Shown here one piece after another: positions 21,776-46,568 of a DNA stretch of 64,000 bases. Each line of letters opens with the position of its first letter. Position 1 is the stretch's first letter. Both the position numbers and the translations under genes were made by a program. Origin of the DNA: a virus; IMG/VR virus record IMGVR_UViG_3300025168_009799, positions 25,750 to 89,749 of that record. One strand, 5' to 3'. The notes under the pieces were generated by a model, which was given only the letters and a program-made list of their open reading frames with translations, made no database searches and was not told the DNA's origin.

Positions 21776-21776
21776 T

Positions 21777-23153: not shown

Positions 23154-23154
23154 T

Positions 23155-25779: not shown

Positions 25780-25793
25780 TAAAATAATTAAAT

Positions 25794-28381: not shown

Positions 28382-31300
28382 ATGAGTAAAATAGATTTAC
28401 TAGGAAATGTAGATAATACTGCTGAGTTAGTATCATCTGCTACTAAGAATAATTCAACAACCCCTAAAGGACCTAAGATGGACTTATTTGGGGGCGTTAA
28501 ATCTGCATCTAAAGCAGCTGAGTTAGGAGAGCTTCCTACTTGGGATGCTTCTGGAGATTTATTTAAACGATATAATAATTTAGATTTAGATAATTACAAA
28601 AAATATTTTACAGTTGATGGGCAAGTAGAAATTCCTGCAGTTAATTTAGACGCTTTAAATGAAGGACGAGCTCGACATCAAAGTACGTTGGCTCAAATTG
28701 GTAATGGTCTAGGTAAAGCAGGGGTTACTTTTGTATCTGCTGTAGGAGAAAATACAGTAGGATTAGTTAATGGTACTTTATCAGCTCTGTATAACTGGGA
28801 TATAAGTAAACTTTATGATAATAATGTAAGTAATGTATTTCAGGGTATGCAAGACTGGGCTCAAGAATCAATGCCTAATTATAATACTCGAGAAATGGAA
28901 CATGCTAATTTCTTTGAGCAGATGTATAATCCAGGTAAAGGAGTTGCTAACTTTTGGGCAGATAAGTTTGCTAATGGATTTGCCTATACATTAGCTTCTG
29001 TAGCTACTATTATAGCTACTGGAGGATATGGGTCTATAGGAGTTGCAGGAAGTTTAGGTAGAATGGGATTACAAGCAGCAGCTCAAGGAGGTAAAAAATT
29101 ATTATTTCAAGCCGCTAAAGATGCTACTAAGAAGACTGTTAAAAAAGGTATAAGAACTATGTTTAAAGAAGGTATGAAACGTAGTGGATCTAGTATTAAT
29201 AGTGTTAGGCAGGGAGTACAAAATATAGCTAAAGGTAATGTAAATGCACAAGCTTTAAAAACTTTAGACGCTGGAATGTCAATGGCTTGGGCAGAATCTT
29301 CGATTGAGGCTAGAGATACTTATGACACAGCTTACGGTTCATTAGTTCAGCAGTATATGGATGAGAATGGATTTGTTGATGAAAGGCAAGTACCAGAACA
29401 AATTAAAGAAAAACTTAGCGGAGAAGCTCAGGCAGCTTCGAATGTAAATTTTGCTGCGAATTTAGCTATTGTAGGTACTACTGATGTTTTAATGTTTGGT
29501 AGAATGATTAATGGTTATAAACCTAAAATTAAATTCAATCCTCTTTCTGGGACAGGTAAAGCTGCTGTAGATGCTACTCTAATAGAAGGTAGTAAATTAT
29601 CTAAAATGAGAAGGATATGGAGAAATACTAAAGCTTATTCAGCAGCTGCGGGTACTGAAATGACCCAAGAGGGTCTGCAATATGTATCTAATAACTTTGT
29701 AACAGATTATTATTTAGATAAGAATTCTGATTCTGGACAAGCTGATATGGTAAATTCATTAGGAAATGCTTTCACTGATTTATTTGGCACTAAAGAGGGT
29801 AAGGAATCTATGTTACTTGGATTTTTAACAGGAGGAGTATCTACTATTAAAGGTACGAGTAAAGCATTGGCAGAGCAAGATGCTAATACTGAAAGTTTAA
29901 TAAACAGAGTTCATACAGGATTTTTAAGTGAAACAAGAGCAAAATTGGAGAAGAAAGAAGCTAGTGGTAGATATACATATTTAATGCAGCAAGCAGAACA
30001 AGAAGGAGATTTAGAAGCTTTTGAAGAAGCTCATCAGGCTTTAATACAAAATGAAGTAATGGCTTCAATTCAAGAAGGTACTCTAGAGGAGTTTAAAGAA
30101 AGAGTCGCAGACGCAGCAGAAATGTCAGATGAAGAATTTTCTGAAACGTTTGGAATTGATTTAGATGCTGTAAAAATAGATAAATCTAGCTATATAACTA
30201 AGCTTCTTAAAAAGGCTGAAAGAATAGAAGCTGTATATCAAGAAGCTTCCCAAGCATTTCAAGTTCAAGAACGTAAAGGTTTATATAGATGGGCAACTGA
30301 GAAAATGGCACCTGAAGAGTTAAAGACGATGGAGGTAAGAAATGAGAATATGAATATTTTCAGATCTCAGTATTTTAACTCTGTTATGCAAATGGATAAT
30401 CTTGATGCTAAAGAAAAAGAGAATGCAGATTTATTGTCAGACTTAACTAATGGAGAAGTTAACTATACAGGTATGAGAGACCTTATAGAAACTACTGAAC
30501 AAGAAGAAGCACTTGATGATCGTCAAATGGACCTTAAGAGACGTATAAACGAAAATTTAGATGATACTGGACAACCTAAAGATCCAGCATTACATGGACA
30601 GCTTGTAATGGAATCAGAGCAGTTAAACATACAACGTGCAAACTTACTAGATAAATTGTCTGAGCAGCATGAAAAAACATTAAAAGGAGAATTTGATAAA
30701 CAATTCTCAGCGTGGTCAACTAAAGTTCAAAAACAAAAAGGTAGAGTAGATCTTATCGACAAAGCTTCTAAAGCTAAGATAGAACTTGATTATGCTAGGG
30801 GCCTTAGAAACCAAGCTGTTCAAGCATTTAATGCGTTAAAAACAGAAGATGGAAGAACGGCACTACTTGAAGATATAGGTAGAATAGAAAAGCTTAGAAG
30901 AAACGATAGGCATAGTGGTGTTCTTATGAGAGAGGCACAAGAGATGGGTATGTCAGAATATACTTATGCAAAGCTTTATGCAATGTCTCAAATGCCAGGG
31001 TTAAACGACAAAGCACGTAAAGCTATACGTAAGAAACAAGCTGATTTAATGAAGATGGAAAAGAGATATAGAACTATGTTCCGTAATATGTCTGATGAAC
31101 AATTAGCAGAAGCATTAATAAAATATAATAATAATTTTATTGTAGGGCTTGTAGGGGAGGAGCTTCTGACCAGATCTGAACAAAAAAGAGTGGATCTAGA
31201 TGAGGAACGTCAACGTATAGAAGAAGAGCAAGAGAAACAAAAAGAACAGGATGAGAAAGTTAAAAGGGACGAAGAGGAAAGGCAAAATGATATATTAGAT

Positions 31301-33784
31301 AAAGAGAAACAGTTAAGGGATAAGCCTGAAACTGAAGAGAATATAGATGATATACAAGTTATAAACCACACTGACTCTAAGTTAATAAAGATTGACCAGA
31401 AGATAGCAGAATTAGAAAGGGAAATTGCAGCTCAAAAACTAATTGTAACTCCTGAAGTTGATAGAATAACAGCTTTAGATAAAACTCTAGATGAGTCAGG
31501 TAGGGCTTTTGTAGATCTCATGAGAGAGAAAGGCAAGGATCAGGGTATGATTGACGCTAAGATAAAAACTGAAGCTAGAAAAACTGCAGCAGGGAATCAA
31601 TTACTAACAAAATATAAAGCTGAAGATACATTACAAAATCCAGAAGGAAAGAAATTAGCTAAACTAGTTGCTGCATATAGTTTATTATACACAGATAGAT
31701 ATATACCAGAAACTACAGTTAATAATACTTTATATTCATCTCCTGATTTAAGAACTCAAAATTTAGGCAATACTGCTTCAAATTACGGAGTTCAACAAGC
31801 TCTCCTTGGTTATGAGGCGTGGGCGGAAAGAGGTGAGACTCTCTCTAATCTTAAAGGGCAAAGAATAGGAATCATAGCTCAAAACAAAAGTAAGACAGAG
31901 GCTGTACCTAAGAATCCTAGTAATGAAACAGGTAGGAAACAAGGACAAGTTATTAGTAGAAATGGACAATATATAAACGAAGATCCTCAAGATAGGTCTC
32001 CAAAGTTTGATGAAAATTTTAATCCAACTAACCATAGATCTAGTGTTACTGTTAACGGGCAAGAGATTAAAATACATAGAGAGCTGTTAACTGATCCTGA
32101 TCTAGCTTCAATGGATACAGAGGTTACGTTAAGAGTGTTACCTACAGATGAGTGGGTTAAATTAGCAGCTGATCCTGGAGCTCCAGAAAAAAAATACCCA
32201 GACTATTCAACTATTCCAGTAGGAATATTTTTGGAGATAGAGAATTATGACGTTCTTGTAGGAACTTTAGGATATCATCAAGGTAATGCAGAATTTACTG
32301 TTGAAAGACAACGTATCTATAATAATTGGAAGAAGGGAAAAGATACTAGAGCTGTTATTAAAAGATATGAAACTGATAATATAGGAATTGATTCTGCTCC
32401 AGGATACAGCAGTAGTAAACTTACTAGTAATGGAGATATTCAAAATTATAGAGATAAGGACGGACTAGGAGTACAGAAATCTGTTTCAGAGATTTTTGCG
32501 TTATCGGAACAAGGCTATGGGCAGCCCGTTATTGCGGTAGTTGCAGGTAGTCAATTTTCTCCGGAAGGTCTTAATATTACTCTTGGATTAAATGCTCCTG
32601 AATTAGACTTAGATAATATACCTGTTCCAAAGTCTCAGATAGCAGGGTCAGTAGGTATGATTGTTCAGGACCCAAATGGTTATGATTTGTTCATACCTTT
32701 ACAAACTAGATTCTTAGGAGAGAACGCTATTAATACAATAATAACGAATGCTGTAGCTAATAACGTAAAAGATATTGAACAGACTACTTATGCTGATTAT
32801 TCGTTACAGGATTTAGAAGATTGGGGATATAGAGGAAGTAGTGTACCTGTAGATTCTAGCTCAGGGTTAGCAAATAATTTTTATAAAATTTTAGCTAAAA
32901 AAGATTCAGAGGATAACTTCTTAGACAGTACACATCTTTTTTACACTCCTTATAAAGATAGTATGGTTCTAGTAGGAGCATCTAACAAGGCTCTTAAAAA
33001 TCAAGGACCAGTTAAAATGTATGAAATAACTGAACAGGGTCTGAAAGTTGTACCGCAAGATAAACAACCGTCTGGATTACCAGATGCTGAGACAGCGATG
33101 AGAGACATGCTATCTAGAAAAAGATATCAAGTAGATGCTAGTAAATTTAATAATACTAATCTTCAATATAAAAGTCCTGTAACTGGTATAACGCACCGTA
33201 ATTACCAAGAATATTTGATGTCTGAGCAAGAGGCTAAGACTGAAGGAGGGGAGGTTCAAGAAAGACGTAATGGTGCTCCAGGAAGTAGCTCTGCTATTAT
33301 CGCTTCAGATGTATATGTAAGAAGAATGGAGAGACCTCTCGCGGGCCCTCATCGTAGTATACATGCGAATGTAAATATTGCTATGAGAATTCCTGAGTTA
33401 GATAATTTTAAAGGTCAGGAGTCTAACACAGATTTAGCTGATCCTATTACTCATAGCGAGGTAATTATAGAGCAACAAGAAAAATTATTAGAACAACAGG
33501 TTGCAGATATGTTAAATATTCCTAACTTTGACCCCTCTCAAATAGACTTCACTGGCGGAGTGATCCCAGGTGCTAGTGATTTAAATAAAATTGAGGAAGA
33601 TATAGTTAATAAAGAGGCTAAAAGATTTAAGAATGAACAAGAAAATAAGGAGGTAGATCCTATAAAAACTAATGAAACAAAGTCTGAAACTTCCACAGAG
33701 GAATTATTAGATAATAGTGACGAGGATATTCCTGATACAGATGCAGAAGATGATGGTATTGTTGGTAACGAAAAAGAATGTTAA
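28382..33784 (+). CDS. Giant ejection/cargo protein A (N-terminal membrane-inserting helices, coiled coils)
   Basis: Gly/Ala-rich hydrophobic segments and AESSIEARD / EMTQEGLQY motifs seen in crAss-like large virion proteins; single Cys at the C-terminus. Confidence 0.7.
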   Translation: MSKIDLLGNVDNTAELVSSATKNNSTTPKGPKMDLFGGVKSASKAAELGELPTWDASGDLFKRYNNLDLDNYKKYFTVDGQVEIPAVNLDALNEGRARHQSTLAQIGNGLGKAGVTFVSAVGENTVGLVNGTLSALYNWDISKLYDNNVSNVFQGMQDWAQESMPNYNTREMEHANFFEQMYNPGKGVANFWADKFANGFAYTLASVATIIATGGYGSIGVAGSLGRMGLQAAAQGGKKLLFQAAKDATKKTVKKGIRTMFKEGMKRSGSSINSVRQGVQNIAKGNVNAQALKTLDAGMSMAWAESSIEARDTYDTAYGSLVQQYMDENGFVDERQVPEQIKEKLSGEAQAASNVNFAANLAIVGTTDVLMFGRMINGYKPKIKFNPLSGTGKAAVDATLIEGSKLSKMRRIWRNTKAYSAAAGTEMTQEGLQYVSNNFVTDYYLDKNSDSGQADMVNSLGNAFTDLFGTKEGKESMLLGFLTGGVSTIKGTSKALAEQDANTESLINRVHTGFLSETRAKLEKKEASGRYTYLMQQAEQEGDLEAFEEAHQALIQNEVMASIQEGTLEEFKERVADAAEMSDEEFSETFGIDLDAVKIDKSSYITKLLKKAERIEAVYQEASQAFQVQERKGLYRWATEKMAPEELKTMEVRNENMNIFRSQYFNSVMQMDNLDAKEKENADLLSDLTNGEVNYTGMRDLIETTEQEEALDDRQMDLKRRINENLDDTGQPKDPALHGQLVMESEQLNIQRANLLDKLSEQHEKTLKGEFDKQFSAWSTKVQKQKGRVDLIDKASKAKIELDYARGLRNQAVQAFNALKTEDGRTALLEDIGRIEKLRRNDRHSGVLMREAQEMGMSEYTYAKLYAMSQMPGLNDKARKAIRKKQADLMKMEKRYRTMFRNMSDEQLAEALIKYNNNFIVGLVGEELLTRSEQKRVDLDEERQRIEEEQEKQKEQDEKVKRDEEERQNDILDKEKQLRDKPETEENIDDIQVINHTDSKLIKIDQKIAELEREIAAQKLIVTPEVDRITALDKTLDESGRAFVDLMREKGKDQGMIDAKIKTEARKTAAGNQLLTKYKAEDTLQNPEGKKLAKLVAAYSLLYTDRYIPETTVNNTLYSSPDLRTQNLGNTASNYGVQQALLGYEAWAERGETLSNLKGQRIGIIAQNKSKTEAVPKNPSNETGRKQGQVISRNGQYINEDPQDRSPKFDENFNPTNHRSSVTVNGQEIKIHRELLTDPDLASMDTEVTLRVLPTDEWVKLAADPGAPEKKYPDYSTIPVGIFLEIENYDVLVGTLGYHQGNAEFTVERQRIYNNWKKGKDTRAVIKRYETDNIGIDSAPGYSSSKLTSNGDIQNYRDKDGLGVQKSVSEIFALSEQGYGQPVIAVVAGSQFSPEGLNITLGLNAPELDLDNIPVPKSQIAGSVGMIVQDPNGYDLFIPLQTRFLGENAINTIITNAVANNVKDIEQTTYADYSLQDLEDWGYRGSSVPVDSSSGLANNFYKILAKKDSEDNFLDSTHLFYTPYKDSMVLVGASNKALKNQGPVKMYEITEQGLKVVPQDKQPSGLPDAETAMRDMLSRKRYQVDASKFNNTNLQYKSPVTGITHRNYQEYLMSEQEAKTEGGEVQERRNGAPGSSSAIIASDVYVRRMERPLAGPHRSIHANVNIAMRIPELDNFKGQESNTDLADPITHSEVIIEQQEKLLEQQVADMLNIPNFDPSQIDFTGGVIPGASDLNKIEEDIVNKEAKRFKNEQENKEVDPIKTNETKSETSTEELLDNSDEDIPDTDAEDDGIVGNEKEC

Positions 33785-36700
33785 ATGGCGAATTGTATAA
33801 ATAGTATAGATAGTTTAGTTGAAAGAAGGGTACAAATGTTATCCTATATTCAAAACAGATTTGGTAAAGATGTTTCTGTTACTATCAATAATTATGTTAA
33901 AAGGGTGGGTAATGAGAATGTACATGGTATGTTTAAAAACATGGCATTTACTTTATCTACTTTAGGTGAACCAGGTGTAGAGTATCATGAAGCTTTTCAT
34001 GGATTCTTTACTATGTATTTAACAGATGGACAGCGCGCGTCTTTATTAAAACAGGCAGCACAAAGATATGGAGAGCCTAGCCAAGTAGAGCTAGACGCTG
34101 TAAATGGAGTAAGAGAATTAGCTCTAGAAGAAAAAATGTCAAATGCATTTCAAGAGTATTCATTAACTGAAGACCCTAAAGGTATACCTGCTAAGATAGC
34201 TAAGTTTTTTAAAGACTTATGGAATTTAATTAAGAGTATGATTTCTGATTCTATAGGAATTAATCAAGCATTTTCTATATTAGAATCAAATAATATTCCT
34301 ATGAAGTTCAAACGGAATATGCACATGTTTAGAGGAGGGAAGCCTGCTATGTACTTAAAGAAACGTGTGGATTATACAACACAAGAAACTAAGGATACAA
34401 CTTTATTTATTAGATCTAGATTTATGAATTTCTGGAGGTCATACCAACAACAGGCTAAGCAGGATCCATTTAAGGTAGCTATTAATAGACAAATGGATAA
34501 AGTTAGAACAGCATTTCCTGCTATGACTAGATCAGAATCTTTAGTTAAAGTTTTAACGTCTCATACTAAGAATACGTTTTTAAGAAACGCTTGGTCATAT
34601 ACTGAGAAAGCTGAAGGAAAAGATGCTGGAACTAAAATTGATTTAAAGCAAGCAAGAGAATTACACGGACTAAGAAGAGAAGGAAAGACGGATGAGTATA
34701 TGAATAAACTTTCAGAATATGGAATTCAAGAGCGTGCAGCATTTGGGTGGTCTCCTAACCCAGGTAATAGAGTTAGAATGGATAAGACTACTACTAATTT
34801 TCAACACTTTATTGATATATATGAAAATTGGGGAGATACTATTCAGACCGCTGAAATTACAGATGATAACGGAAAGAAGAAAGAAGTTAAGATTAATACT
34901 ATAGACCAAGGATGGTGGACTGGGGTAGAAGAACTCTTACCAGATGTAGGATTAAAGATTAGACATAGAGAAGTAACTGAGGGATTAGAAGAACTACCAT
35001 TGGACCCAACTGAGACAGACTCTCCTAGTCCTGAAGGAGGAGAAAGGATTTATGAATTAAGCCATTATGAACAAGATAGTTGGAAAGGTATGTCAAAAGA
35101 GTTACGTATGTACTTTGAAGATATATTAGATTACTCATCAGAGATTCCAAACCATTTACAAGTACATAGACCTCATGGAGGTAAACATGTATATGAAGTA
35201 TTAAAATTAGCTTTATCAAATACTACAAGTTTTACACAAATGAAAGACGTGCTAAAAGAGAAAGCTACATTACATGGTCCTAATAGTATTTATGGTATAA
35301 TGTTTTCTCGTGTTACTGGCATAGGATTAGAAGGACGAGTAGAGAATATTACTATGCAGCTTCCTGCTACATTAGTATCAGATTTTCATGGATTATTTAG
35401 AAATACTACTAAAGAATTTAAATCGGTAAAGGTAAATAGAAGTAAGCGTAAAGACGCGCAAGGCATGTTGCCTGCACCTGAAGTAGTAGTTTATAACCCA
35501 GATCAGAATTCAATTATTAATAATTTAGTTAATAATCAATATAGAAAAAATATTATTGATGTAACTGGAGTTAAAACTGAAAGAGCTTTATACAATAAGG
35601 CTGTTACTGTAGAGCCTGGAACCAAAGATCAGAGTATAGAATATATACCTATTAGAGAGAATCTACAAGACTTTCAAGCCCACGTTAAAGATTTAAATTC
35701 TTTAACTTCAATGCGAGGAGAGCTTAATGAGTCCGAGCTGGTTGAGGCTACAAGAGCCTTTAGAAAAATAGTAACTTATTTAGGAGTTGATTTACCAGGT
35801 ATATCTCCACAAGACCAAGATACTGTTCTTTACGATATAGTAAATCAAGGGGTATCTATACCAAATAGATTTGGTAAGTATACTACATATCAAGGCAAAA
35901 ACTTTTTTAGATATTTTTTAAAAGGAAGCAAGACAAAATCAAAATCTAATTTATTAACTGTAAGTGCGCAGATTATAGATCAAAAAGGCGAACCTAAGAA
36001 GCCTACGTTTGAGCCATTTTCTAAAGGAGCCTCAAGAGGACTCTTAATGAATTTAGCAGCTTTTCAAAAAGCTTTAGGTATAAATGGAGAACCTAATTAT
36101 GTTAATGAGTTTGGTAAATCTATTTATAAAATTAACATGCCTACTGCTTTTGATAATACTGTGAATAGAATTAAGAGTGGTAAAATATTTGATGCAGACC
36201 CTAACAATATAGAATATGGTAATTTAGACAAAGATCCTTTGTTCGTACCAGTGCAAAAACCGGTTGACGGTACAAGCTCTTGGGCTAATTATGTAAGCCC
36301 TTTATATATGTCTATGATTAATAACACTGACGGTTTAAGAGAGAAGTTAAGTCTAGAAAATATTAGTGCTTTTACTTTAGATTCAAATAGAGGATATAGT
36401 GATTTTGGCCAGATGAGTGAGAGCGATGAATATTTATTACGTTTATTTCTATTTCAAAAAGGTACTCATTCGGATAACTTAACTAATATGATGATCGATA
36501 CTCAAGGGGATAGAGGAGTATCTAGTACTATGGGATTACCTAGAGTAATATTAGAAGGGGAAGGGACTAGAAGCCTTGATAATTCTATGTACGGCTCTAA
36601 TGGATTTAAAACTCTAACAGATTTTAGTAATGCTTATATTATTCAGGATATCGTTAAGATGCAACAAGCTGACTCGCATGTAGAACTTGCGGAAGATGGC

Positions 36701-39700
36701 GAATCTTTATTTGATACTTATCATTATACTAACCCTAGTGATAAAAAAGCTAAAGATGGTAAAGCATTTAAATTTACGCAATTGCCTTTTGCACAAGACA
36801 TGCTAGAGCGTGGGGACTTAGACTTATCTCCAGGTATAAACTTAACACAAATTAATGTAGAAGATTTTGTTAACGGTGAACAGAGTATTAGAACTAATAA
36901 CTATATAGAAACTGAACAAGAAACTGTTAGCAGAGATAAAGTTATAGCATTGCTAGATAAAATATCAATGGAGTTTGGAAAAAACATAGATAGGTATACA
37001 GATCAATGGGTGTCTGATATGAAAAAGATGAAAGTCTGGGATAATAATATATGGGTAGATACTGATTTTCTAAAAAAGATACACGGAGGAAATGCAGCGA
37101 TCAATGACATAACAAAGAAATATCTAATTAAAAATTATATCGTTAATGATGTAATTAATAGATTAGAAATGAAAAAGATATTACGTATTACAGATGATTT
37201 CACAAACAATACGGAGATAGCAGCTAAGAGATTTGGACTTGGATCTACTCCAGGACTACAATTATTAATGAAAGGTCAAAATTTAGCGGACCCTTCTTGG
37301 GGAATGACTCCTACATTTAGTGAATTAATAATTGAAGATTTATATAATATACAAGCAGATAGTGGAAGACATGAAAGGTTTGCAGAATCTCTTAATACGT
37401 TAGGGGTACCTTTAAAGTTAATTAATCAATTTGCTTCTCAATATAGACCAGGACAATCTAATAAGACAGACGCTTCTGGATGGATGTCAGTACATGCTTG
37501 GCGTAACAGATTACAAGGCCAACCTAATGGATGGACTAATGCACATGAGAAAGCATATAACAATTATAAGCAGTCTGGCGTATGGGGATTTTATAAAAAT
37601 ATTTATAATTTTAAAGAAGGTAAAACAGAACAAATTCTAGTACGTCCTCCTGTATTACCTATTAAAGAGTATTATGAATCACATGAATTGTATCAAGGTA
37701 ATACTTTAGCAGTTAATAATACTAAGAACTCTTATTTACCTTTATTAAAAGAGACAACAGACATAGCTGGTCAAGGCCTAGAGCTTATTAGATTAAGATT
37801 AGAAGGGAAGGAATTAAACGCTGCGGATAAAGCGGCAGGGAAAACTCAATTTGCTACACATACTCCTATAGATGTAGCTAATACAGTAAGCGCTAAAAAA
37901 CTTGCTAGACTTAACGTTATAAAATTTCAAAATAATGATGGTACTTTTAATATATCAGGATTAGTTACTGCTAAACCTGTTGTTTTAAATTCTAATGGAA
38001 TAAAGATTCCACAAATTAAACCTTCTACAGCAACTAAGAAATTTACTATTTGGGGCACACAAGTGAAGAGAAATGCAATTGCTAATGTACAAGATGATAC
38101 TCAATATACTCTTCCTCAAGGTAATAAATTATCTGGAAGTATGGTAAAATCTTTATATCATAAAGCTGCTCAAGCGAATATGGATACTAGTATTGAGAAG
38201 TTAGAGAAAGCTTTTGGATTTTCAAGATTGAAAGGTTTAAAACTTGGAGACAACGGTTATGATAACGCCAAACTTCAGCATTTAAAATACATTAGAGATT
38301 TAATTCAAAGAGAAGTTATAGAAAGAGGGTTACCACAAAGTTATATAGATTCTTTAGAAATAGTTAAAGATACAAAACAAGGATGGAAGTTTCAAATACC
38401 TTTAGATTTTCCAGTGTACCAGAGAAGATTTCAAAATATATTATATTCATCTTTTAGAAAAACAGCTTTAAGACAAAAGATAAACGGCCTACAGGTTGTA
38501 CAGATGGCTGATGTAGGAGGAAGAGATACTCAAACTTTAACATCTACAGATCTTAAATTTATTGATATAAATAACGGAAAAATAACTAAAGCAGAGATTT
38601 TAATATCTGAAGATATAGCAGCTAGATTTGGATTAAAGAAAGGAGAGTCATTAGAGATGGCTGATCCTGAATTATTAGATATGATAGGATATAGAATTCC
38701 TAATCAAGGTAAAAACTCTATATTAGCTTTAACAGTAAAAGGTATACTACCGGGACATGAAGCAACAGTAGTTGTGCCAGGAGAGATTACCACTCAGATG
38801 GGATCTGACTTTGATATTGATGCTTTATTTTTAATGATTAAAAATGGACAACGTAATAGCCAAGAAGCAATTGATAGAGGTGAACCTGTTGTTAATAAAG
38901 TTAGCTATCCTTTAGAAGAGATGACAGGAAAAGCAGTAGCTAATAAAAGTTTAACTGCTTATTCTAAACCGCAATTAGATAATTTAATTATTGATTTAAC
39001 ACAAGCTATTGTTACAAACGTAAATCATTTACAAGAAACTATTACTCCATTAGATCCTGCTGAATTTAATATGGGAGATCCAAATTCTTTTATTAATAAA
39101 GTTATTAATATAATGGGTACTGCAGAACAGTTAGATAAGTTAAATCCTAAGAGTCAAATTGAGTTATTAATGCGTAATAAAAACGGGGCTACAGGTATTG
39201 GAGTATATGCAAATACTTTATCTGTACGAAATGTATTATCTGCTCTTGACTTACCAGTAGCTAAAAAATATCAAATTAAACTAATTATAGATAAGTTAGG
39301 AGAAAATTTAGATCGTCAAGGTAATCCAGAGGTAGTTCAAGAAGAAGTAATTTTAAACAATTTTAATGTTATAAAAGATGCTTATGGAGAAGAGACTGTT
39401 GATGTGCATGCCTCTAAACATGTATCATTAGCTGTGGATAATGCTAAAGATCCTAGAATGTATTATTTAAATGATAATCCTTTAACTTGGACTGCAACTT
39501 CTTACATGTTAAGTATGGGGATGACGGCTAGAGACGCAGCTGTATTAAGATTACAACCTATGGTATGGGAAGTGGTTCAAGAAACATTAAGAACAGGTGG
39601 GTCTGTATTTGACTTAAAAACTGCGGCTGTTGAGAAAGCTAAATCGTATGCTTTAAAAAACGGTATTGATATATTAAGTGCGACGGATGAAAAGATGATT

Positions 39701-42175
39701 GGATTTAGAGATTCTTTCTTTAATAATTTAGGGTCAAGAGTAGTGAAGTTTCAAGTTGAATTAGCAGCATCTCAAATAGGCTCTACTTTAGAAAATCAAA
39801 ATAATCCTAACAAAGCTTATGGGTATTTATTAGGCCAAATGGTAGCTATCAACAATCTTCTAGCTATGAACAATGCTGGTCGAGATTTACAGACGTTAGC
39901 TAGAATAGTAGTTCCAGACAGTAAAGCAGAATTAAGTACAGCTGAATCAGCTAATGAATTTTTTGATGCTAAATATTTTTTAGAACAAAATGATTTAGAC
40001 ACATTCTCTGTTAATGCTCCAGACTTTGTTGCATTATTAGATGGTTCTAAATATCAAATGGTAAAAGGTATGCACGATGTTCTTACATCAACCGTAAATA
40101 ATATGTCTACTTTATTCAGACAGGGTAGTCCGTTATTATCACCTATGAGAGTTGCATCTGCTAATATGGATTTTGGACGACAATTCTTTGATAAACAAGG
40201 ACAACAAGCATTATCAGCATTCTTGTTATATAATGCTATGACTTCTCCTGGTAGTCCTATTAGAAATCTCGTTACTGAAGAAAATATAGAACGTTTATTA
40301 GTATCTAAAGAAACAAATTTTGCGAAAACATTAGAAGAAACTAAACTAACTAATCAAGAAGTTGCTACTAATTTATTTTTTAGTAGATTATCTACATCAG
40401 AAAGAATTTCTAAATTAGATAAGCAAATATTTTTATTGGATTTTAATCAAAATTTTATAGAAGGTAAAATTTCTAAAGACGCTGTAATTCAGGCTTTAGA
40501 GTCTGCATTAAACAGTGTAAATCCTAGTATTAGAGCTCTTGCTAAAGATGCTATTACTGTACAATTATTATCTAGTGGAATGGATAGTATAGGATTTAAT
40601 AATTTTATTGAATTTGTTCCTCCATCTTTTTGGACAGGATTAAAGTTTACTGAGAATTATGGTACTCAACAACAAGTAGAAACAGATGTAGAATCTTTTA
40701 TTGCGTCTAGATTACAAGAGCTTACAACTAGTGGGCTATCAGCGATACCTTCAGGAGGTATGGATAATTTTGTTAGGATTTATGGGCCTAGAGTTAAGAG
40801 TTTACTTAAACATATACCTTTAAAAACATTACCTAAGAAAAAAGGAATACGAGCTGGTATGCAACCGTCATATGAAATTGGAGTATTAGATGATGCTGCA
40901 GGTAGAGTTGTTTTTAACAAGATTCCAATTACATATTTTAAAACCACAAATAAGAGTGGGGAATTAGAAATGTATAAATTCAATATGGGTAAATCTAATG
41001 AAACTGTGTTGTTTTATGAGAAGCTTAATATGACTGATGATTTTAAATTTTTATACTTACATAATGTTTTAGACTCTAATGGAAGGCAAGTAGAGGAATC
41101 TGTATTACCTGATAGAAGCGCTCCAGGCCCTATGAGCCCGTTTACTCAAGCTAGTCCAGAGCAGTTACAAGCACAGTACGATCAAATGACTGAGAGTACG
41201 TTAAACCAATACGATAGACAAGCTCAGTCTTTTATGAATATGTTAACTAATGAGTCTGATTCAATTGATAGTACACCTATTATTGGAAAATCAGTTTCAA
41301 AACCTCTCAAAAAAGGTCTACCAGGAGTTTTTAATGAAGAACTACAACAAATAGGAACAGAAGACCAATACTCTGAGTATTTAGATACTGTATTTCCTAA
41401 TAGTAAAGTAAAAGAGATTGTTTATAGAGGAGTAGCAAAAACTAGACAACAAAAAGCCGCTGCTAATTTAGGTAAAGGTGTTTATTTTGCAATGGAAAAA
41501 GAGAAAGCTGAAAGATACGGAGACGTTACTGCTTCAATTGTTAATGTTCAAGATCCTTTAATAGTTAATATAACTAAGAATGATAACAGGGGGTTTGATC
41601 CAGGAAATGTAAGTGTTAAGAAAGCAACAACTAATGCTGAAAACCCAAGCGGTAAAGACGCAATGGTAAATTATGAATACTTAGCTAAAAATGATTATCA
41701 AGAGTATAATCAATATACTGGTTATTATGTAGGACCTTTAAATGTAGATGGGTCGCCTGCACAAAATGAATTTAAACAGACTCCTTATGCTACAGAATTA
41801 GCTGTTCAGTCAGACGCTCAAGTACTTGAATTAGGATCTAAAAAAGATATAGAAGGATTTAAGAAGTTTGTATCTAAACCAACATCTACTGTTACTGTTG
41901 GATCTGAACAAGCGCCTCCAAGTAATGCTATTCCTAAAGGAGCTATAAACTTTGGAGAGAGTGTATTTGGTAAAACAGATGAGAATTTAGATTTATTACC
42001 TAAAGAAGATTTAATAGAGATTCTTAAAGGATTAACAAATAATATGGCCGAAGTTAATAAAGAAGCTATCATGGCTGAGGCTGAAGGTATGAGTCAAAAA
42101 GATCTAGCTAAAATGGTCGAAGACATGAAAAAGGATGAAGATATTACTGAAGATGATTGTAATAGTCCACTATAA
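33785..42175 (+). CDS. Virion-packaged RNA polymerase (crAss/phi14:2 gp66-like) with N-terminal zincin and C-terminal ART-like domain
   Basis: GYRIPNQGKNS...QMGSDFDIDAL catalytic motif (DFDID at 38807-38821), AVDNAKDP, and N-terminal HEAFH. Confidence 0.9.
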   Translation: MANCINSIDSLVERRVQMLSYIQNRFGKDVSVTINNYVKRVGNENVHGMFKNMAFTLSTLGEPGVEYHEAFHGFFTMYLTDGQRASLLKQAAQRYGEPSQVELDAVNGVRELALEEKMSNAFQEYSLTEDPKGIPAKIAKFFKDLWNLIKSMISDSIGINQAFSILESNNIPMKFKRNMHMFRGGKPAMYLKKRVDYTTQETKDTTLFIRSRFMNFWRSYQQQAKQDPFKVAINRQMDKVRTAFPAMTRSESLVKVLTSHTKNTFLRNAWSYTEKAEGKDAGTKIDLKQARELHGLRREGKTDEYMNKLSEYGIQERAAFGWSPNPGNRVRMDKTTTNFQHFIDIYENWGDTIQTAEITDDNGKKKEVKINTIDQGWWTGVEELLPDVGLKIRHREVTEGLEELPLDPTETDSPSPEGGERIYELSHYEQDSWKGMSKELRMYFEDILDYSSEIPNHLQVHRPHGGKHVYEVLKLALSNTTSFTQMKDVLKEKATLHGPNSIYGIMFSRVTGIGLEGRVENITMQLPATLVSDFHGLFRNTTKEFKSVKVNRSKRKDAQGMLPAPEVVVYNPDQNSIINNLVNNQYRKNIIDVTGVKTERALYNKAVTVEPGTKDQSIEYIPIRENLQDFQAHVKDLNSLTSMRGELNESELVEATRAFRKIVTYLGVDLPGISPQDQDTVLYDIVNQGVSIPNRFGKYTTYQGKNFFRYFLKGSKTKSKSNLLTVSAQIIDQKGEPKKPTFEPFSKGASRGLLMNLAAFQKALGINGEPNYVNEFGKSIYKINMPTAFDNTVNRIKSGKIFDADPNNIEYGNLDKDPLFVPVQKPVDGTSSWANYVSPLYMSMINNTDGLREKLSLENISAFTLDSNRGYSDFGQMSESDEYLLRLFLFQKGTHSDNLTNMMIDTQGDRGVSSTMGLPRVILEGEGTRSLDNSMYGSNGFKTLTDFSNAYIIQDIVKMQQADSHVELAEDGESLFDTYHYTNPSDKKAKDGKAFKFTQLPFAQDMLERGDLDLSPGINLTQINVEDFVNGEQSIRTNNYIETEQETVSRDKVIALLDKISMEFGKNIDRYTDQWVSDMKKMKVWDNNIWVDTDFLKKIHGGNAAINDITKKYLIKNYIVNDVINRLEMKKILRITDDFTNNTEIAAKRFGLGSTPGLQLLMKGQNLADPSWGMTPTFSELIIEDLYNIQADSGRHERFAESLNTLGVPLKLINQFASQYRPGQSNKTDASGWMSVHAWRNRLQGQPNGWTNAHEKAYNNYKQSGVWGFYKNIYNFKEGKTEQILVRPPVLPIKEYYESHELYQGNTLAVNNTKNSYLPLLKETTDIAGQGLELIRLRLEGKELNAADKAAGKTQFATHTPIDVANTVSAKKLARLNVIKFQNNDGTFNISGLVTAKPVVLNSNGIKIPQIKPSTATKKFTIWGTQVKRNAIANVQDDTQYTLPQGNKLSGSMVKSLYHKAAQANMDTSIEKLEKAFGFSRLKGLKLGDNGYDNAKLQHLKYIRDLIQREVIERGLPQSYIDSLEIVKDTKQGWKFQIPLDFPVYQRRFQNILYSSFRKTALRQKINGLQVVQMADVGGRDTQTLTSTDLKFIDINNGKITKAEILISEDIAARFGLKKGESLEMADPELLDMIGYRIPNQGKNSILALTVKGILPGHEATVVVPGEITTQMGSDFDIDALFLMIKNGQRNSQEAIDRGEPVVNKVSYPLEEMTGKAVANKSLTAYSKPQLDNLIIDLTQAIVTNVNHLQETITPLDPAEFNMGDPNSFINKVINIMGTAEQLDKLNPKSQIELLMRNKNGATGIGVYANTLSVRNVLSALDLPVAKKYQIKLIIDKLGENLDRQGNPEVVQEEVILNNFNVIKDAYGEETVDVHASKHVSLAVDNAKDPRMYYLNDNPLTWTATSYMLSMGMTARDAAVLRLQPMVWEVVQETLRTGGSVFDLKTAAVEKAKSYALKNGIDILSATDEKMIGFRDSFFNNLGSRVVKFQVELAASQIGSTLENQNNPNKAYGYLLGQMVAINNLLAMNNAGRDLQTLARIVVPDSKAELSTAESANEFFDAKYFLEQNDLDTFSVNAPDFVALLDGSKYQMVKGMHDVLTSTVNNMSTLFRQGSPLLSPMRVASANMDFGRQFFDKQGQQALSAFLLYNAMTSPGSPIRNLVTEENIERLLVSKETNFAKTLEETKLTNQEVATNLFFSRLSTSERISKLDKQIFLLDFNQNFIEGKISKDAVIQALESALNSVNPSIRALAKDAITVQLLSSGMDSIGFNNFIEFVPPSFWTGLKFTENYGTQQQVETDVESFIASRLQELTTSGLSAIPSGGMDNFVRIYGPRVKSLLKHIPLKTLPKKKGIRAGMQPSYEIGVLDDAAGRVVFNKIPITYFKTTNKSGELEMYKFNMGKSNETVLFYEKLNMTDDFKFLYLHNVLDSNGRQVEESVLPDRSAPGPMSPFTQASPEQLQAQYDQMTESTLNQYDRQAQSFMNMLTNESDSIDSTPIIGKSVSKPLKKGLPGVFNEELQQIGTEDQYSEYLDTVFPNSKVKEIVYRGVAKTRQQKAAANLGKGVYFAMEKEKAERYGDVTASIVNVQDPLIVNITKNDNRGFDPGNVSVKKATTNAENPSGKDAMVNYEYLAKNDYQEYNQYTGYYVGPLNVDGSPAQNEFKQTPYATELAVQSDAQVLELGSKKDIEGFKKFVSKPTSTVTVGSEQAPPSNAIPKGAINFGESVFGKTDENLDLLPKEDLIEILKGLTNNMAEVNKEAIMAEAEGMSQKDLAKMVEDMKKDEDITEDDCNSPL

Positions 42176-42191
42176 TTAATATATTTGCAAT

Positions 42192-45100
42192 ATGGCATGT
42201 AGAATAAATAGAGACGCAAGTGATAATATACTAGAGGTACTAACTTCTAGAGGAGTTCCTTCGCAATTATATGAAGATATAGTAAAAGATCTTACAGTTA
42301 ATCAGAATAAGAGGTTAGCTGCTTTGAAAGACCCGTTTGTAGCATCAAGATTATCTAAAGGTAATGTAAGGAATACAACAGCTGAAGAAGTAGCATTTGG
42401 TATTTATGCTAAAGTATCAACTTCTGAATTTCAAAATCAAGTACAAAAAAATTCATATAGAGATTTAAATAATGAGATTTCTGTTACAGATCCTTCAATT
42501 CAAAAGTTATATCAAGTTCCTACATCTAATACTGTAGAAGGTAACATGGATATACGAAACCAACAAACAGCAAATATTTTAAGTGCCTCATTTGCTAAAG
42601 CTGGTATTAAAACTCATATAAAGATTAATAATAATTTATCAGATGCTGCACGATTAATGCCACAAGCTGCTGATGGGACTTTTGTTATTCAGATTAATCC
42701 AAATAAACTTCCAGGTGATGCTGTTTTTCATGAATTTGGCCATATCTATATAGACTTATTAGGATTAGAACACCCTGTTATTAAACAAGCTGTAGAAGCT
42801 TTTAAATATTCTAGGTTATGGAAATTTATAGAAAGAGAGTATCCAGGGTTAACATATGAACAATTACAAAAAGAAGTTTTAGCAACAGCTATAGGATTTG
42901 AAGGTGAAAGAATAATCAAAACAGAAGAAAGCTCTACTGTATTAGAACGAGTTATTAGAAATATCTTAGATGCAATTGGAAAATTATTCTCTATTACATT
43001 TGTAGGTAAAAATTATAGAAATTCAGCTAGAATGTTAGCTCAAGAATTATATACAGGTAATGTTAGAACTGATATCAATTCAGTTAGTGCTGTAGATTAT
43101 ATACAACGACGAAAAGATTATAATGAATTAGATGCTTTAGTACAAAATACAGAAATTGCACTTAAAGAAAATATAAACTCATTACGTAGTAAAGGGTTCG
43201 AAGTTAAAGCAGAAATACTAGAAGATAACTTAAAGAAATTAAGAAAAGCTAAAACAAGAGCTAATACAATAAGACAATTAATTAAATATGCTCAGGTTGT
43301 ATCTTCTCAAACACAAAATATGATTAATTCTATTAATCAGTTAGAAGTGCTGCATGAGAATAATGATCCTACTATAAGTAAATACTCTAAAAATATTGCT
43401 AGTATTTATCAATATATACATTCTCATGACCATTTAGAACAAATACAAGACTTTTTAAATAAAGAAAATTTATCTCCAGAAGAAGCAAAATTACTAAGCA
43501 CTCATAATATTCCTCAAGTTGTACAAGATTTACGAGATGCTTCTAGTAAATTTAGAGAGATAGAAAGAAAGTATAATTATATAGCTCCTTATATCTTAGC
43601 AGACCAATTATTAGATTATCATAATCAGGACATTGACTCAGAGCTAGAGAAACATTTAGCTACAATGGCAAAGAATAAAGAGGATGGTAGATTTTTTACT
43701 ATACAATTAGATAAAAAAGATCCAGATTATGTTACTTTAAAACAACAAGAGACGGACGGTATATTAACTCCGGAAGCTTTTAATGAGAAAGTAATGCAAT
43801 TAAATATAGAGCAGTTAAAAAATAAATTTACTGTAGGTAGAACTCAATTAGTGGAGACTTTAAGAAAGAGTATACGTGATAAAAGTGGAATTTCTATGTG
43901 GTTAGATCCTTTTGTACACTCAACTGATGTTAGTTTTCAACTATTTGCTAAAAAAGTTAAACATGCTTTTGATAGAGCGGATGTAGTTAGTACTCATAGT
44001 AGAAACTTTTTAGGAAATGAATTGGGTAGATACTTAAAAGCAACTGGTCAAAGTTCTTTTAGACCTGAAAAATTAAATGCGCCTTTTGTTGAAGTTATAG
44101 ATATGTTACAATATAATCCTAATACTGGTGCATATGAATTAAGAAAACATAAAGCTTTTGTACAAGAGTATGATGTAAGTAAATTCTATGAAAAGAAAAA
44201 GAAATTTATTGATGAATTATATGAACGGTTAGAATATCCTAAGAACGGTACTGAACAAGACATAGCGAACTGGATGGATACACATACTAAGCAAGTTACT
44301 CAAGAACTTAAAAAATGGGATACTGAAAATACTGTACCTATTGAAGGCGCTGATCAAACTATTAAATCTAAATTAGCAGAATTAAATAAAGCTTATAAAC
44401 TTCGTAAAGAAGCTGAAAAAAGTAAAAGGTTAGATTTAGCGGCTGCAGCAGAGCATGAAGAAAAAAGAGTTAGAATGTGGTTAAATAAAAATACTAGATA
44501 TGCTGATGGTAAGTATACTGCTATTGGATTGTTAGCTAGGCCTACTGATAACTATAAAAATCCTAAATATAATAAGATACAAGCTGATTCTGCAAAGAAA
44601 AGATATTATAACGCTCTTCGAAAAGTACATGAGGCTTCTCAAGATAAAATTGGAGAGTTTAAATTAAGAAGAAAAAGAAATTCTTGGAATAACCATAGTT
44701 ATATTTTACCTTCTGTAAGAAAACAAAAAAGAGACATGCTGTTTGAAAACGGTATGCTTAAAGTAATAAAAGAAGCAAGTCAAAGTCTAAATGTACAAAA
44801 AGGGGATGATATTTATAATTCTAGTATTGTTCATACAGAGGATGAAACGAAAAAGATTCCTATTTATTATACAGAAGACATGGTACCTGAAGATGTGAGT
44901 GTTGACTTAGCTAATTCTTTACTAAGTTTTGATCATATGGCTAACTTGTTTCAAAGTAAATCTGAAATTCAAGATACAGTTCTTATGATGGAAGCTCAAA
45001 TTTCAAATAGAGATCAAGTATCTACTGCACCAGACGGACAGCCTTTAATGAAAAGGTTAGCTAAAACTTTAGGATATAATGTACATTCTACTAAGAAAGC

Positions 45101-46568
45101 AGCAAATAATAATAATTTAAAAGCTTTACGTAACTTCATTGATATGAATTTTTATGGAGAACAAAATGTAAAATCACAAGTTGTTGTTCCTCTATTAAAT
45201 AAACAAATAGAAATGAATAAGGTAAGTAGTACTCTTATTGCATATACCGCAATGAACGCTTTATCTTTTAACTTGCTACAAGCTACAAATCAAGTTGTTC
45301 TTGATGATCTTATGAATTATGGAGAAGCTATGGGTGGAAAATATTATAATAGAAAACAATACTTTGCAGCTAAGAAAGAATATACTAAATATGGTATGTC
45401 TATGAAAGATTTAGCAGCTGGACGAGCTGTTACTAAATTAGGAGCTGCAATTGAGATGTTTGATCCTCTACAAGGAGAAATGAGTAGTAAATTAACCGGG
45501 AGATCTTTAGGTAGTAAAAGTAAACGAATGATGACTTCAGATTTTACCACGTTCTTACAACACGGCGCTGAACATGAAGTTGCTGTAACAAGAATGATAG
45601 CTCGTTTAATGAATATAAAACCTAAGAACGATAAGGGTAAATATATTAATAGACAAGGTAAAGAAACTGATATAAAGTCTCAAGGTGCTAGTTTGTGGAA
45701 TATGATCCAACAAGGAGATGTTAGACAAGAAAATGGTAATTTAGTACTTAAGAATGGTATTACTATTACTGATATAGAAATTAATAATATTAAAAATCAA
45801 TTACATGGTTTAACTAAATTATTAAATGGTGTTTATAATCAATTTGATAAAGCTGAGCTTAAAAGGCATTGGTGGGGAAAACCTTTCTTATTATTTAGAA
45901 GTTGGATGATGCCTGGTGTACGTAAAAGATATGGCCGAGAAGCTGGTTTAGGTATGCATATTGATGAAGAGTTAGGTACGTTAGGTGAAGGGTCTTATGT
46001 ATCCTTTGTTAGAGCCTTAAGGAATATGGTAATGGAAGCTAAAACAGGAGACTATTCTGAAGCTATGAAGATATTAGCAGGTAAAAGTGATACTTTAACC
46101 GATATGGAAAAATTAAATGTTTCTAGAACATTAAATGAAGTAATATCTATTGGGGTAACAATGATCTTATTTGCAGGATTAATGTCTATGATAGATGATG
46201 ATGACGATGAAATAGGATATGGTATGAATTTTACATTATATCAAGCTAAAAGATTACAAACAGAATTAAGAGCTTTTGTTCCGCTTCCTATGCTTGGTAT
46301 GACAGAGTTTTTACGTTTATTAGAATCTCCTACAGCTACATATAGCTCACTTGATAAGTTTGATGGCCTTTTAAAAGAGCTATTAACGCTTGGAGGTGAT
46401 ATGTTAGATGGAGAGTTAGAGGAGGGTAGAAGGTATAAGAGAAAAACTAGCGGCTATGAGAAAGGTACTCTTAAACTTAAAAAGAAATTTTGGGATGTAG
46501 TACCTATTATAAGAGGTCTTGAAAAAACTAAGACTCCTGAAGACGCTCTTAAGTGGTTTCTTCTTTAA
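42192..46568 (+). CDS. Giant ejection/cargo protein C with zincin-like HExxH domain
   Basis: HEFGH...KEVLA metallopeptidase motif; LNGVYN.FDK...FRSWM C-terminal region typical of crAss-like large virion proteins. Confidence 0.7.
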   Translation: MACRINRDASDNILEVLTSRGVPSQLYEDIVKDLTVNQNKRLAALKDPFVASRLSKGNVRNTTAEEVAFGIYAKVSTSEFQNQVQKNSYRDLNNEISVTDPSIQKLYQVPTSNTVEGNMDIRNQQTANILSASFAKAGIKTHIKINNNLSDAARLMPQAADGTFVIQINPNKLPGDAVFHEFGHIYIDLLGLEHPVIKQAVEAFKYSRLWKFIEREYPGLTYEQLQKEVLATAIGFEGERIIKTEESSTVLERVIRNILDAIGKLFSITFVGKNYRNSARMLAQELYTGNVRTDINSVSAVDYIQRRKDYNELDALVQNTEIALKENINSLRSKGFEVKAEILEDNLKKLRKAKTRANTIRQLIKYAQVVSSQTQNMINSINQLEVLHENNDPTISKYSKNIASIYQYIHSHDHLEQIQDFLNKENLSPEEAKLLSTHNIPQVVQDLRDASSKFREIERKYNYIAPYILADQLLDYHNQDIDSELEKHLATMAKNKEDGRFFTIQLDKKDPDYVTLKQQETDGILTPEAFNEKVMQLNIEQLKNKFTVGRTQLVETLRKSIRDKSGISMWLDPFVHSTDVSFQLFAKKVKHAFDRADVVSTHSRNFLGNELGRYLKATGQSSFRPEKLNAPFVEVIDMLQYNPNTGAYELRKHKAFVQEYDVSKFYEKKKKFIDELYERLEYPKNGTEQDIANWMDTHTKQVTQELKKWDTENTVPIEGADQTIKSKLAELNKAYKLRKEAEKSKRLDLAAAAEHEEKRVRMWLNKNTRYADGKYTAIGLLARPTDNYKNPKYNKIQADSAKKRYYNALRKVHEASQDKIGEFKLRRKRNSWNNHSYILPSVRKQKRDMLFENGMLKVIKEASQSLNVQKGDDIYNSSIVHTEDETKKIPIYYTEDMVPEDVSVDLANSLLSFDHMANLFQSKSEIQDTVLMMEAQISNRDQVSTAPDGQPLMKRLAKTLGYNVHSTKKAANNNNLKALRNFIDMNFYGEQNVKSQVVVPLLNKQIEMNKVSSTLIAYTAMNALSFNLLQATNQVVLDDLMNYGEAMGGKYYNRKQYFAAKKEYTKYGMSMKDLAAGRAVTKLGAAIEMFDPLQGEMSSKLTGRSLGSKSKRMMTSDFTTFLQHGAEHEVAVTRMIARLMNIKPKNDKGKYINRQGKETDIKSQGASLWNMIQQGDVRQENGNLVLKNGITITDIEINNIKNQLHGLTKLLNGVYNQFDKAELKRHWWGKPFLLFRSWMMPGVRKRYGREAGLGMHIDEELGTLGEGSYVSFVRALRNMVMEAKTGDYSEAMKILAGKSDTLTDMEKLNVSRTLNEVISIGVTMILFAGLMSMIDDDDDEIGYGMNFTLYQAKRLQTELRAFVPLPMLGMTEFLRLLESPTATYSSLDKFDGLLKELLTLGGDMLDGELEEGRRYKRKTSGYEKGTLKLKKKFWDVVPIIRGLEKTKTPEDALKWFLL

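Follow-up and report, generated by a model that had tools for sequence, protein, structure and literature searches.

Among the phages of the human gut, the Crassvirales are the most abundant. How their virions store and eject a cargo of about 5.5 MDa, which includes a giant RNA polymerase (RNAP), is presented as an open question by Bayfield et al. (PMC10172136), and the same question is raised for coliphage N4, whose virion RNA polymerase (vRNAP) is described as a giant protein packed in the capsid, ejected through a narrow tail and thought to be unfolded or loosely folded during passage (PMC13434306). In the cultured phage crAss001 the products of the corresponding gene block were identified as virion proteins by mass spectrometry (PMC10172136), and genes g065 to g067 of phi14:2 are annotated as virion proteins on the same basis in the record notes. 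For the cyanopodophage A4 (Anabaena phage A-4L, Saffermanviridae), cryo-electron microscopy of the pre-ejectosome within the capsid revealed that, in its outer layer, Cys1715 of gp27 and Cys5 of gp26 are joined by a disulfide, the C-terminal helix of gp27 fitting into a gp26 cleft (PNAS 2025, PMC12002296). Here we describe a stretch of 64,000 nucleotides from the IMG/VR virus record IMGVR_UViG_3300025168_009799 (positions 25,750 to 89,749 of that record), hereafter the window, in which three giant adjacent genes encode proteins, named here A, V and C, that carry cysteine only at the ends facing one another in gene order. The pattern is genuine, holds across crAss-like phages and covaries strictly with whether the proteins are encoded separately or fused.

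The features that carry the pattern are given below, with positions counted from the first nucleotide of the window.

28382..33784, + strand: protein A, 1800 amino acids (aa), 200.8 kDa, first link of the proposed chain; its sole Cys is the C-terminal residue 1800
33779..33781, + strand: TGT codon for Cys1800 of A, immediately 5' of the TAA stop codon, after which comes the ATG of the vRNAP gene
33785..42175, + strand: V, the predicted vRNAP, 2796 aa, 314 kDa, middle link; its only Cys are C4 and C2792
33794..33796, + strand: TGT codon for Cys4 of V, facing the C-terminal end of A
42158..42160, + strand: TGT codon for Cys2792 of V, 4 residues before the C-terminus and facing the N-terminal end of C
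42192..46568, + strand: protein C, 1458 aa, 166.8 kDa, last link; its sole Cys is C3 and its free C-terminal end has none
42198..42200, + strand: TGT codon for Cys3 of C
21747-23153, 23155-25779 and 25794-28376, + strand: three upstream open reading frames (ORFs) of 468, 874 and 860 aa, with 0 Cys

All window ORFs of at least 150 aa were translated and their Cys counted, and the result agreed exactly with an initial annotation of this DNA, which had placed Cys at residue 1800 of A, residues 4 and 2792 of V and residue 3 of C, and none in the upstream cargo; the four codons stand at the coordinates given there, and all are TGT. The background rate, taken from the other 26 ORFs of this size, is 173 Cys in 10,558 aa (1.64%), which predicts about 135 for the 8,256 residues of cargo, where four are observed. 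The probability that all four fall within the four facing 5-residue end windows of the 6,054 aa of A, V and C is 1.2e-10. An external virion protein encoded just upstream of the block (16412-21775, 1787 aa, phrog_15100) has 16 Cys. The tails preceding both C-terminal Cys are acidic, as had also been noted, Asp and Glu together making up 20 of the last 60 residues of A and 16 of the last 60 of V. The three upstream Cys-free ORFs (21747..28376) are probably other cargo or ejection proteins that lie outside the Cys chain; they matched no PHROG or Pfam family, a single match to Serglycin (26.9 bits) falling below the cut-off of 30.

Cys4 of V depends on the use of the ATG at 33785, which abuts the TAA of A. 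The public gene call of the window vRNAP (P0001, 2779 aa) begins 17 aa later, at Met18, and thereby loses C4. The longer form is favoured because a relative that is 80% identical to the window protein (P0002) starts with MANC, and most other relatives likewise begin M-x-x-C.

Conservation of the pattern was examined at the level of gene junctions. An alignment of 15 V proteins retrieved 546 relatives, from which 80 IMG/VR loci were taken; ORFs on the + strand of these loci were labelled with our own A, V-core and C profiles, and the loci were grouped into 50 clusters (at least 60% core identity), each counted below through one representative unless all loci are specified. Between adjacent large ORFs there are 61 junctions, at 53 of which Cys is present on both sides and at eight on neither, with no mixed junction (Fisher p = 3.4e-10); for all 80 loci the corresponding numbers are 75, 8 and 0. 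The expectation raised by the initial annotation, that terminal Cys should come and go in pairs where genes are split or fused, is therefore borne out without a discordant case among the 61. The eight Cys-free junctions lie either between a Cys-free cargo ORF and the first member of the chain or between two such cargo ORFs.

The pairs track the gene architecture closely. Loci encoding A, V and C separately have two Cys pairs, those with A and V fused retain the V/C pair and have lost exactly the A/V pair, and those with V and C fused (L047 and L080) have the A/V pair only. Nine loci encode the whole chain as a single ORF of 4627-5711 aa with 0 Cys, and the single ORFs of L069 and L075 have one to two internal Cys. 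At the other extreme, the chain of L042 (5876-24977) is divided into four pieces and shows three Cys pairs: a 3890-aa piece with a C-terminal Cys is followed by a piece of 1167 aa, with Cys4 and a second Cys 1 residue from its end, and by one of 1308 aa with Cys4. The 1167-aa middle piece matched no Pfam family. In total, the chain ORFs of the representatives contain 148 Cys in 267,777 aa, of which 112 are terminal and 36 internal, and each junction accounts for two of the chain Cys, giving totals of 2, 4 or 6.

At 52 of the 53 paired junctions the C-terminal Cys lies 0-4 residues from the end; in the crAss001 group the distance is 8 residues. On the downstream side it occupies position 3-5 in 47 of 53 (range 3-11), usually as M-x-C, the later positions stemming from the rule that the first start codon of the open frame was taken. 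Two further observations concern the sequence around the junctions. A motif C-P-N-K-x-L-x-x-W-K follows the N-terminal Cys of V in L004, L009, L011, L013, L014, L047 and L048, and the same motif stands at the N-terminus of C in L030, L037, L040, L076 and L077, which suggests, from its occurrence in either protein, a portable N-terminal plug or a split point that has moved. When 300-aa end pieces were mapped by BLAST onto fused relatives to locate the split sites, the last 30-100 residues upstream and the first 40-200 residues downstream could not be aligned, and these junction-proximal segments are therefore variable; a weak alignment in L024 places ...DPNK... opposite CPNK and is insufficient to name the residue that replaces Cys. 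Locus L069 (767-24627) has an unusual arrangement, in which an ORF of 5419 aa, with a single Cys at residue 5022 and no terminal one, is followed by a Cys-free ORF of 584 aa and then by a 1946-aa ORF with Cys4 that gave an ART-PolyVal match below threshold.

Named cultured relatives, for which the initial annotation had proposed a Cys count in phi14:2 and crAss001, show the same terminal pattern in both. In phi14:2 the Cys are C1797 of the 1797 residues of g067, C3 and C2179 of the 2180 residues of g066 and C3 of g065, and there are no others. In crAss001, gp47 has C2339 (of 2341 residues), gp50 has C5 and C2404 (of 2412) together with one internal Cys, and gp49 has C5. The crAss001 gene for gp47 lies on the opposite strand from those for gp50 and gp49, yet its C-terminal Cys is kept. 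The pattern extends to Flavobacterium phage Fpv3, where gp32 (4287 aa) contains a single Cys, 1 residue from the end, and gp33 has C3 and one internal Cys, and to Rudgehvirus jaberico, where the single Cys of a 2018-aa protein is likewise 1 residue from the end and the next protein (4098 aa) has C3 and no C-terminal Cys. Upstream in Fpv3, gp30 (L086:1895-3691, 598 aa) contains one Cys only, at position 5; the last 80 residues of the preceding gene product are Cys-free, so that it has no obvious partner.

These results bear directly on the suggestion that the terminal Cys have no function in the protein and reflect chance, errors of gene calling or a nucleotide signal at the junction, such as one involved in translational coupling, that reads TGY by coincidence. 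It could draw on the public call of V, which omits C4, on the several downstream starts that were assigned from the first start codon in an open frame, and on the predominance of TGT (88 of 106 junction Cys codons). Set against this are the preservation of the pattern across 50 lineages at about 20-30% protein identity, the use of TGC as well as TGT, and the variation both in Cys position (0-8 residues from the upstream end; position 3-11 downstream) and in the gap between the genes, which runs from -13 to +507 nucleotides. The window taken by itself already yields the probability of 1.2e-10 given above. Moreover, since crAss001 gp47 keeps its C-terminal Cys while not adjoining gp50 and on the other strand, the pattern is independent of gene adjacency and is not a DNA signal at the junction. 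We give this explanation next to no weight.

Placement of Cys within the three protein families leads to the same picture. In all 15 members of the A family, counting the window protein, a Cys lies 0-2 residues from the C-terminus; it is the sole Cys in 14 of them, and no member has one at the N-terminus. The V family was defined as 80 homologues found with the RNAP core as query, again including the window protein; a Cys lies within 15 residues of the C-terminus in 79, mostly 0-4 residues away, and in the alignment of 15 V proteins the column of C2792 is as invariant as the catalytic residues. At the N-terminus, 55 of the 80 have a Cys at position 3-8. The remaining 25 consist of 11 with N-terminal homology to A, 10 in which the RNAP core starts at residue 2159 or later and four that seem to be short at the 5' end, P0001 among them; length is an imperfect proxy for fusion here, because a late core is also seen in some V proteins that have an N-terminal Cys, all of them with additional Pfam domains. 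The only V-family protein with an N-terminal but no C-terminal Cys is P0074 (3681 aa), a candidate V+C fusion, as the length following its core suggests.

For the C family, an exhaustive search gave 841 matches at E of 0.001 or less, represented by 150 sequences, none of which has a Cys within 15 residues of the C-terminus. Among the 119 stand-alone members, 102 have a Cys at position 2-12, and 15 of the 17 others were read as fragments or as having non-ATG starts. Proteins defined as fusions by their profile matches behave as the junctions do: A+V forms lack the N-terminal Cys in all six cases and keep the C-terminal one in all six, and A+V+C proteins have no terminal Cys in 10 of 10 and no Cys at all in eight of 10. 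Among 21 V+C proteins, eight have an N-terminal Cys only and 13 have no terminal Cys; eight of these 13 have a late core and are probably A+V+C proteins with a divergent A part, and two are shortened forms of proteins of 4717 and 5466 aa that contain no Cys. In several V proteins of gut type (P0019, P0025, P0036, P0051, P0058 and others) extra domains occur (helicase, PF08719, PF18760, PF12694) together with many internal Cys (0.2-0.9%), and the terminal Cys are nonetheless kept. The purge of Cys is relaxed in these lineages.

To count independent events, a tree of 51 RNAP cores was built with IQ-TREE and independent pairs were drawn from its well-supported branches. The split state changed at least 10 times for A/V and at least eight times for V/C. 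Cys moved with it in seven of seven independent A/V pairs (p = 0.016) and in six of six V/C pairs (p = 0.031). Raw lineage counts (split, fused, discordant) are 37/13/0 for V/C and 22/21/0 for A/V, where 16 of the 21 A+V calls were made from the length preceding the core and a Cys-free upstream ORF, with no A-profile match, and where L018 was excluded because its ORF is cut by the end of the contig.

The identity of the three proteins rests on comparison with the cultured phages. Residues 1226-1944 of V match phi14:2 g066 and crAss001 gp50 (tblastn, E 3e-20, 22-23% identity) and include a DFDID sequence, corresponding to the DFDxD motif named for the crAss-type RNAP (10.1101/2020.03.07.982082), of which D1675, F1676, D1677 and D1679 are invariant in 15 aligned V homologues. 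The earlier designation of the 2796-aa protein as a vRNAP thus holds, and V is a predicted crAss-type virion RNAP. A is homologous to phi14:2 g067 and crAss001 gp47 and matches phrog_32390 (E 3e-23), and C is homologous to phi14:2 g065 and crAss001 gp49; the window order A-V-C is that of phi14:2 g067-g066-g065, and membership of the A and C families was confirmed by searches. Three motifs were located in the proteins.

38807..38821, + strand: DFDID, catalytic motif of the two-barrel RNAP, residues 1675-1679 of V
33986..34000, + strand: HEAFH, an HExxH (zincin-like) motif, residues 68-72 of V
42729..42743, + strand: HEFGH, an HExxH (zincin-like) motif, residues 180-184 of C

HEFxH is part of the consensus of the C family (33 sequences), in all of which M1 and C3 are invariant, and a domain of phi14:2 gp65 is called Zincin-like in the preprint of Drobysheva et al. 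(10.1101/2020.03.07.982082). Many relatives in the range L003-L082 have an HExxH motif about 1000-1150 aa before the RNAP core, whatever their split state. The chain may therefore hold two putative zincin-like domains, one in V and one in C. No Pfam family was assigned to A, V or C, the HExxH domain of C included, and a sequence search of the PDB gave a chance match only (E 0.067). The free C-terminal end of C (46450-46568) has a basic-aromatic motif, [KR]-[WF]-[FY] (...KWFLL in the window), which is shared by fused forms and by a majority of the 150 C-family sequences and could be an element for docking or for a DNA end.

We consider it reasonably probable (about 0.6) that the facing Cys pairs form inter-protein disulfides which rebuild a covalent A-V-C chain in the released virion. 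That each pair is a disulfide is inferred by analogy with the solved structure of an unrelated podophage with the same signature, A4. The presence of disulfides between subunits in purified crAss001 virions, in the tail and in gp57 (PMC10172136), also speaks for it. In this reading A, V and C are the split form of a polypeptide that other crAss-like phages encode whole; at every split the upstream protein ends in Cys and the downstream protein begins with it, and a disulfide would join each facing pair in the assembled and released virion. The A-V-C chain so produced would be close to linear, with about 6,050 residues and a mass of about 680 kDa, and with overhangs of only a few residues beyond each bond the joint would be almost as slim as a peptide bond. 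Such a chain could fix both a 1:1:1 stoichiometry and the order of the proteins in the capsid; during ejection each protein might pull the terminus of the next into the portal and tail channel, and the links might afterwards be reduced in the host cytoplasm, the last being the weakest step of the scheme. Partial unfolding and N-to-C ejection have been proposed for crAss001 gp45 by Bayfield et al. (PMC10172136), and for ejection of this kind a linear head-to-tail chain would be well suited.

Bonding between facing ends, pair by pair, predicts that the outer ends lack Cys, that the facing ends have it and that Cys are twice as numerous as junctions, as found. A count of two per junction fits pairwise bonds and does not fit a single site of four Cys binding a metal. 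The Cys that remain in A+V and V+C fusions exclude both cyclisation of V and direct pairing of A with C as the rule. Two other candidates were rejected: an intein or trans-splicing system, there being no end domain of intein size and no junction Cys in the fused forms, and a lipoprotein, the Cys standing at position 3-5 with neither signal peptide nor lipobox.

The Cys at a chain end could instead be directed at a third party, whether the portal, a protein of the inner capsid, a second molecule of the same protein (in homodimers or rings) or a covalent modification, and be lost on fusion simply through no longer being terminal. Any function of a chain end would vanish in the same way, and in A4 the linked pair forms part of a pentameric ring around the portal axis, so that higher-order assemblies are plausible. 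Against this, Cys is never present on the outer ends: none occurs at the N-terminus of A or of A-containing fusions, or at the C-terminus of any of the 150 C-family proteins. The additional split in L042 is accompanied by Cys on both new ends, mixed junctions are absent (0 of 61), and the remaining cargo ORFs, being Cys-free, offer no partner. Pairing between the two different facing proteins is argued for by these Cys-free outer ends, by the new pair at the extra split and by the A4 precedent, and we regard a third-party target as rather unlikely.

Facing Cys might also bind zinc, copper or iron jointly, possibly together with the downstream HExxH motif in the manner of a cysteine switch or zinc hook. 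Both downstream proteins of the window have HExxH (from residue 68 in V and 180 in C), HEFxH belongs to the consensus of the C family, and neither a reducing cytoplasm nor an anoxic habitat would keep a metal site from forming. The association breaks down across the loci, where HExxH lies within 350 aa in the downstream protein at only 19 of the 53 Cys-paired junctions, and for that reason the HExxH clasp is rejected as a general mechanism. V and C of the crAss001 type lack HExxH and keep the pairs, many C members of a second clade lack the motif, and where it is present it lies anywhere between about 65 and about 640 aa from the Cys. A usual zinc site needs more than the two thiolates that a junction provides, and there is no conserved His, Asp or Cys adjacent to them. 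The same signature in A4 is a disulfide, and gp26 and gp27 of A-4L have no HExxH. Binding of a metal by the facing Cys seems to us quite improbable.

Several points weigh against disulfide linkage. For crAss-like phages the bond is a prediction from sequence. Capsids assemble in the cytoplasm, a reducing environment that normally prevents disulfides, and the ends must therefore first be held together in some other way; gut crassviruses, moreover, inhabit an anoxic environment. An oxidase of the Erv1 type (PF04777) was not found in the 89.7-kb genome, nor in any of 14 control genomes, which makes the result uninformative. In the account of Bayfield et al. (PMC10172136) there is no ordered density for gp47, gp49 and gp50 of crAss001. 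The whole chain is a single Cys-free polypeptide in at least nine lineages, and since these fusions function unseparated, unless they are cleaved, the proposed reductive release is weakened: separation after entry is either needless or achieved in another way. The fusion data taken alone would also fit models that need merely a terminal Cys.

Several individual sequences are possible exceptions to the pairing. The 1946-aa ORF of L069 has Cys4 and no Cys-ended partner upstream; P0144 and P0151, whose contigs measure 6.6 and 5.3 kb, have the look of complete C proteins and lack the N-terminal Cys; and P0113, P0169 and P0178 are V+C forms lacking the N-terminal Cys, read without 5' context. The reliance of 16 of the 21 A+V fusion calls on pre-core length rather than on an A-profile match also counts among the points against, and in the IAS virus the relevant junction is unreadable owing to N bases.

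A broader proposition, which we advance tentatively and hold to be possible though doubtful, is that evolution has put terminal Cys pairs in the place of peptide bonds. The Crassvirales and, independently, at least one cyanopodophage would rejoin separately translated pieces through head-to-tail disulfides once assembly is complete; a thread of more than 5,000 residues, the RNA polymerase included, would be ejected continuously and in fixed order, and splits and fusions would be free to occur provided that the new ends gain Cys. Should the bonds be real, they would be a rare case of disulfides replacing the continuity of the backbone and would introduce a redox-sensitive step into infection.

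The junction rule indicates which ends touch and in what order, namely A, V, C, and it is of use in annotation, where it fixes start codons, separates fragments from whole genes and groups giant ORFs into one functional chain. The initial annotation had considered the mechanism undescribed. For a single link this does not stand, given the disulfide between a C-terminal and an N-terminal end resolved in A4 by cryo-electron microscopy (PMC12002296); for the Crassvirales, no description of terminal-Cys links was found in the openly accessible main texts searched. The word cysteine has 0 occurrences in the available text of the two main crAss papers (PMC10172136 and 10.1101/2020.03.07.982082), where the disulfides mentioned are those between subunits in the tail and in gp57 of purified crAss001 virions (PMC10172136). 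The order-wide rule, a chain that contains an RNAP and the covariation with splits and fusions appear to be new.

The window forms part of an 89,749-bp IMG/VR record that CheckV rates as complete. A search for near-identical DNA in a phage collection gave no match to the window, and a search of viral contigs for the locus with a single protein likewise gave none. The minus-strand half carries replication genes, encoding a DnaB-like helicase, AAA_24, a DEAD helicase and a 5'-3' exonuclease, and within this module lies a gene resembling that for spore photoproduct lyase (PF20903, E 3e-29; 50730-51590, - strand; listed start TTG). On the + strand, a 786-aa ORF (10660-13020) has 43 Cys (5.5%) and a start resembling a signal peptide, with no Pfam or PHROG family, and a 119-aa frame just upstream of it (10444-10581, + strand) gave a thioredoxin-like match of 17 bits, below the cut-off of 23.5.

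Among known systems, N4 (Schitoviridae) provides the example of a giant ejected polymerase that avoids Cys, as had been supposed at the outset: its gp50 vRNAP, gp51 and gp52 contain none in 3500, 644 and 150 aa, respectively. It differs in being a single chain, in having a T7-like rather than a two-barrel polymerase and in the absence of junction Cys. A4 resembles the window in having two adjacent large internal ejection proteins, the upstream one with a C-terminal Cys that faces an N-terminal Cys of the downstream one. In the A-4L record the sole Cys of gp27 (1717 aa) is residue 1715 and that of gp26 (1114 aa) is residue 5; the counterparts in the window are C1800 of 1800 in A and C2792 of 2796 in V upstream, and C4 of V and C3 of C downstream. 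A4 differs in having a single link, no chain and no RNA polymerase, and the available text of the A4 paper treats the bond as a stabiliser of the pentameric ring, with neither the notion of a stand-in for a peptide bond nor a comparison of split and fused forms (PMC12002296). Our A, V-core and C profiles gave no match to A-4L gp25-gp29 at E values up to 10, and the likeness concerns the mechanism rather than the family.

The fused A+V+C proteins show the same domain order (A profile, RNAP core, C profile) in one chain of 4,600-6,000 aa, mostly with 0 Cys; their cleavage into components is assumed in the preprint on the crAss RNAP (10.1101/2020.03.07.982082). The counterparts of A, V and C in the cultured phages are phi14:2 g067, g066 and g065 and crAss001 gp47, gp50 and gp49. 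V of the window is about 22% identical to their vRNAPs and 400-600 aa longer, and the three protein families and the terminal-Cys pattern are the same in all, with a gene order shared between the window and phi14:2.

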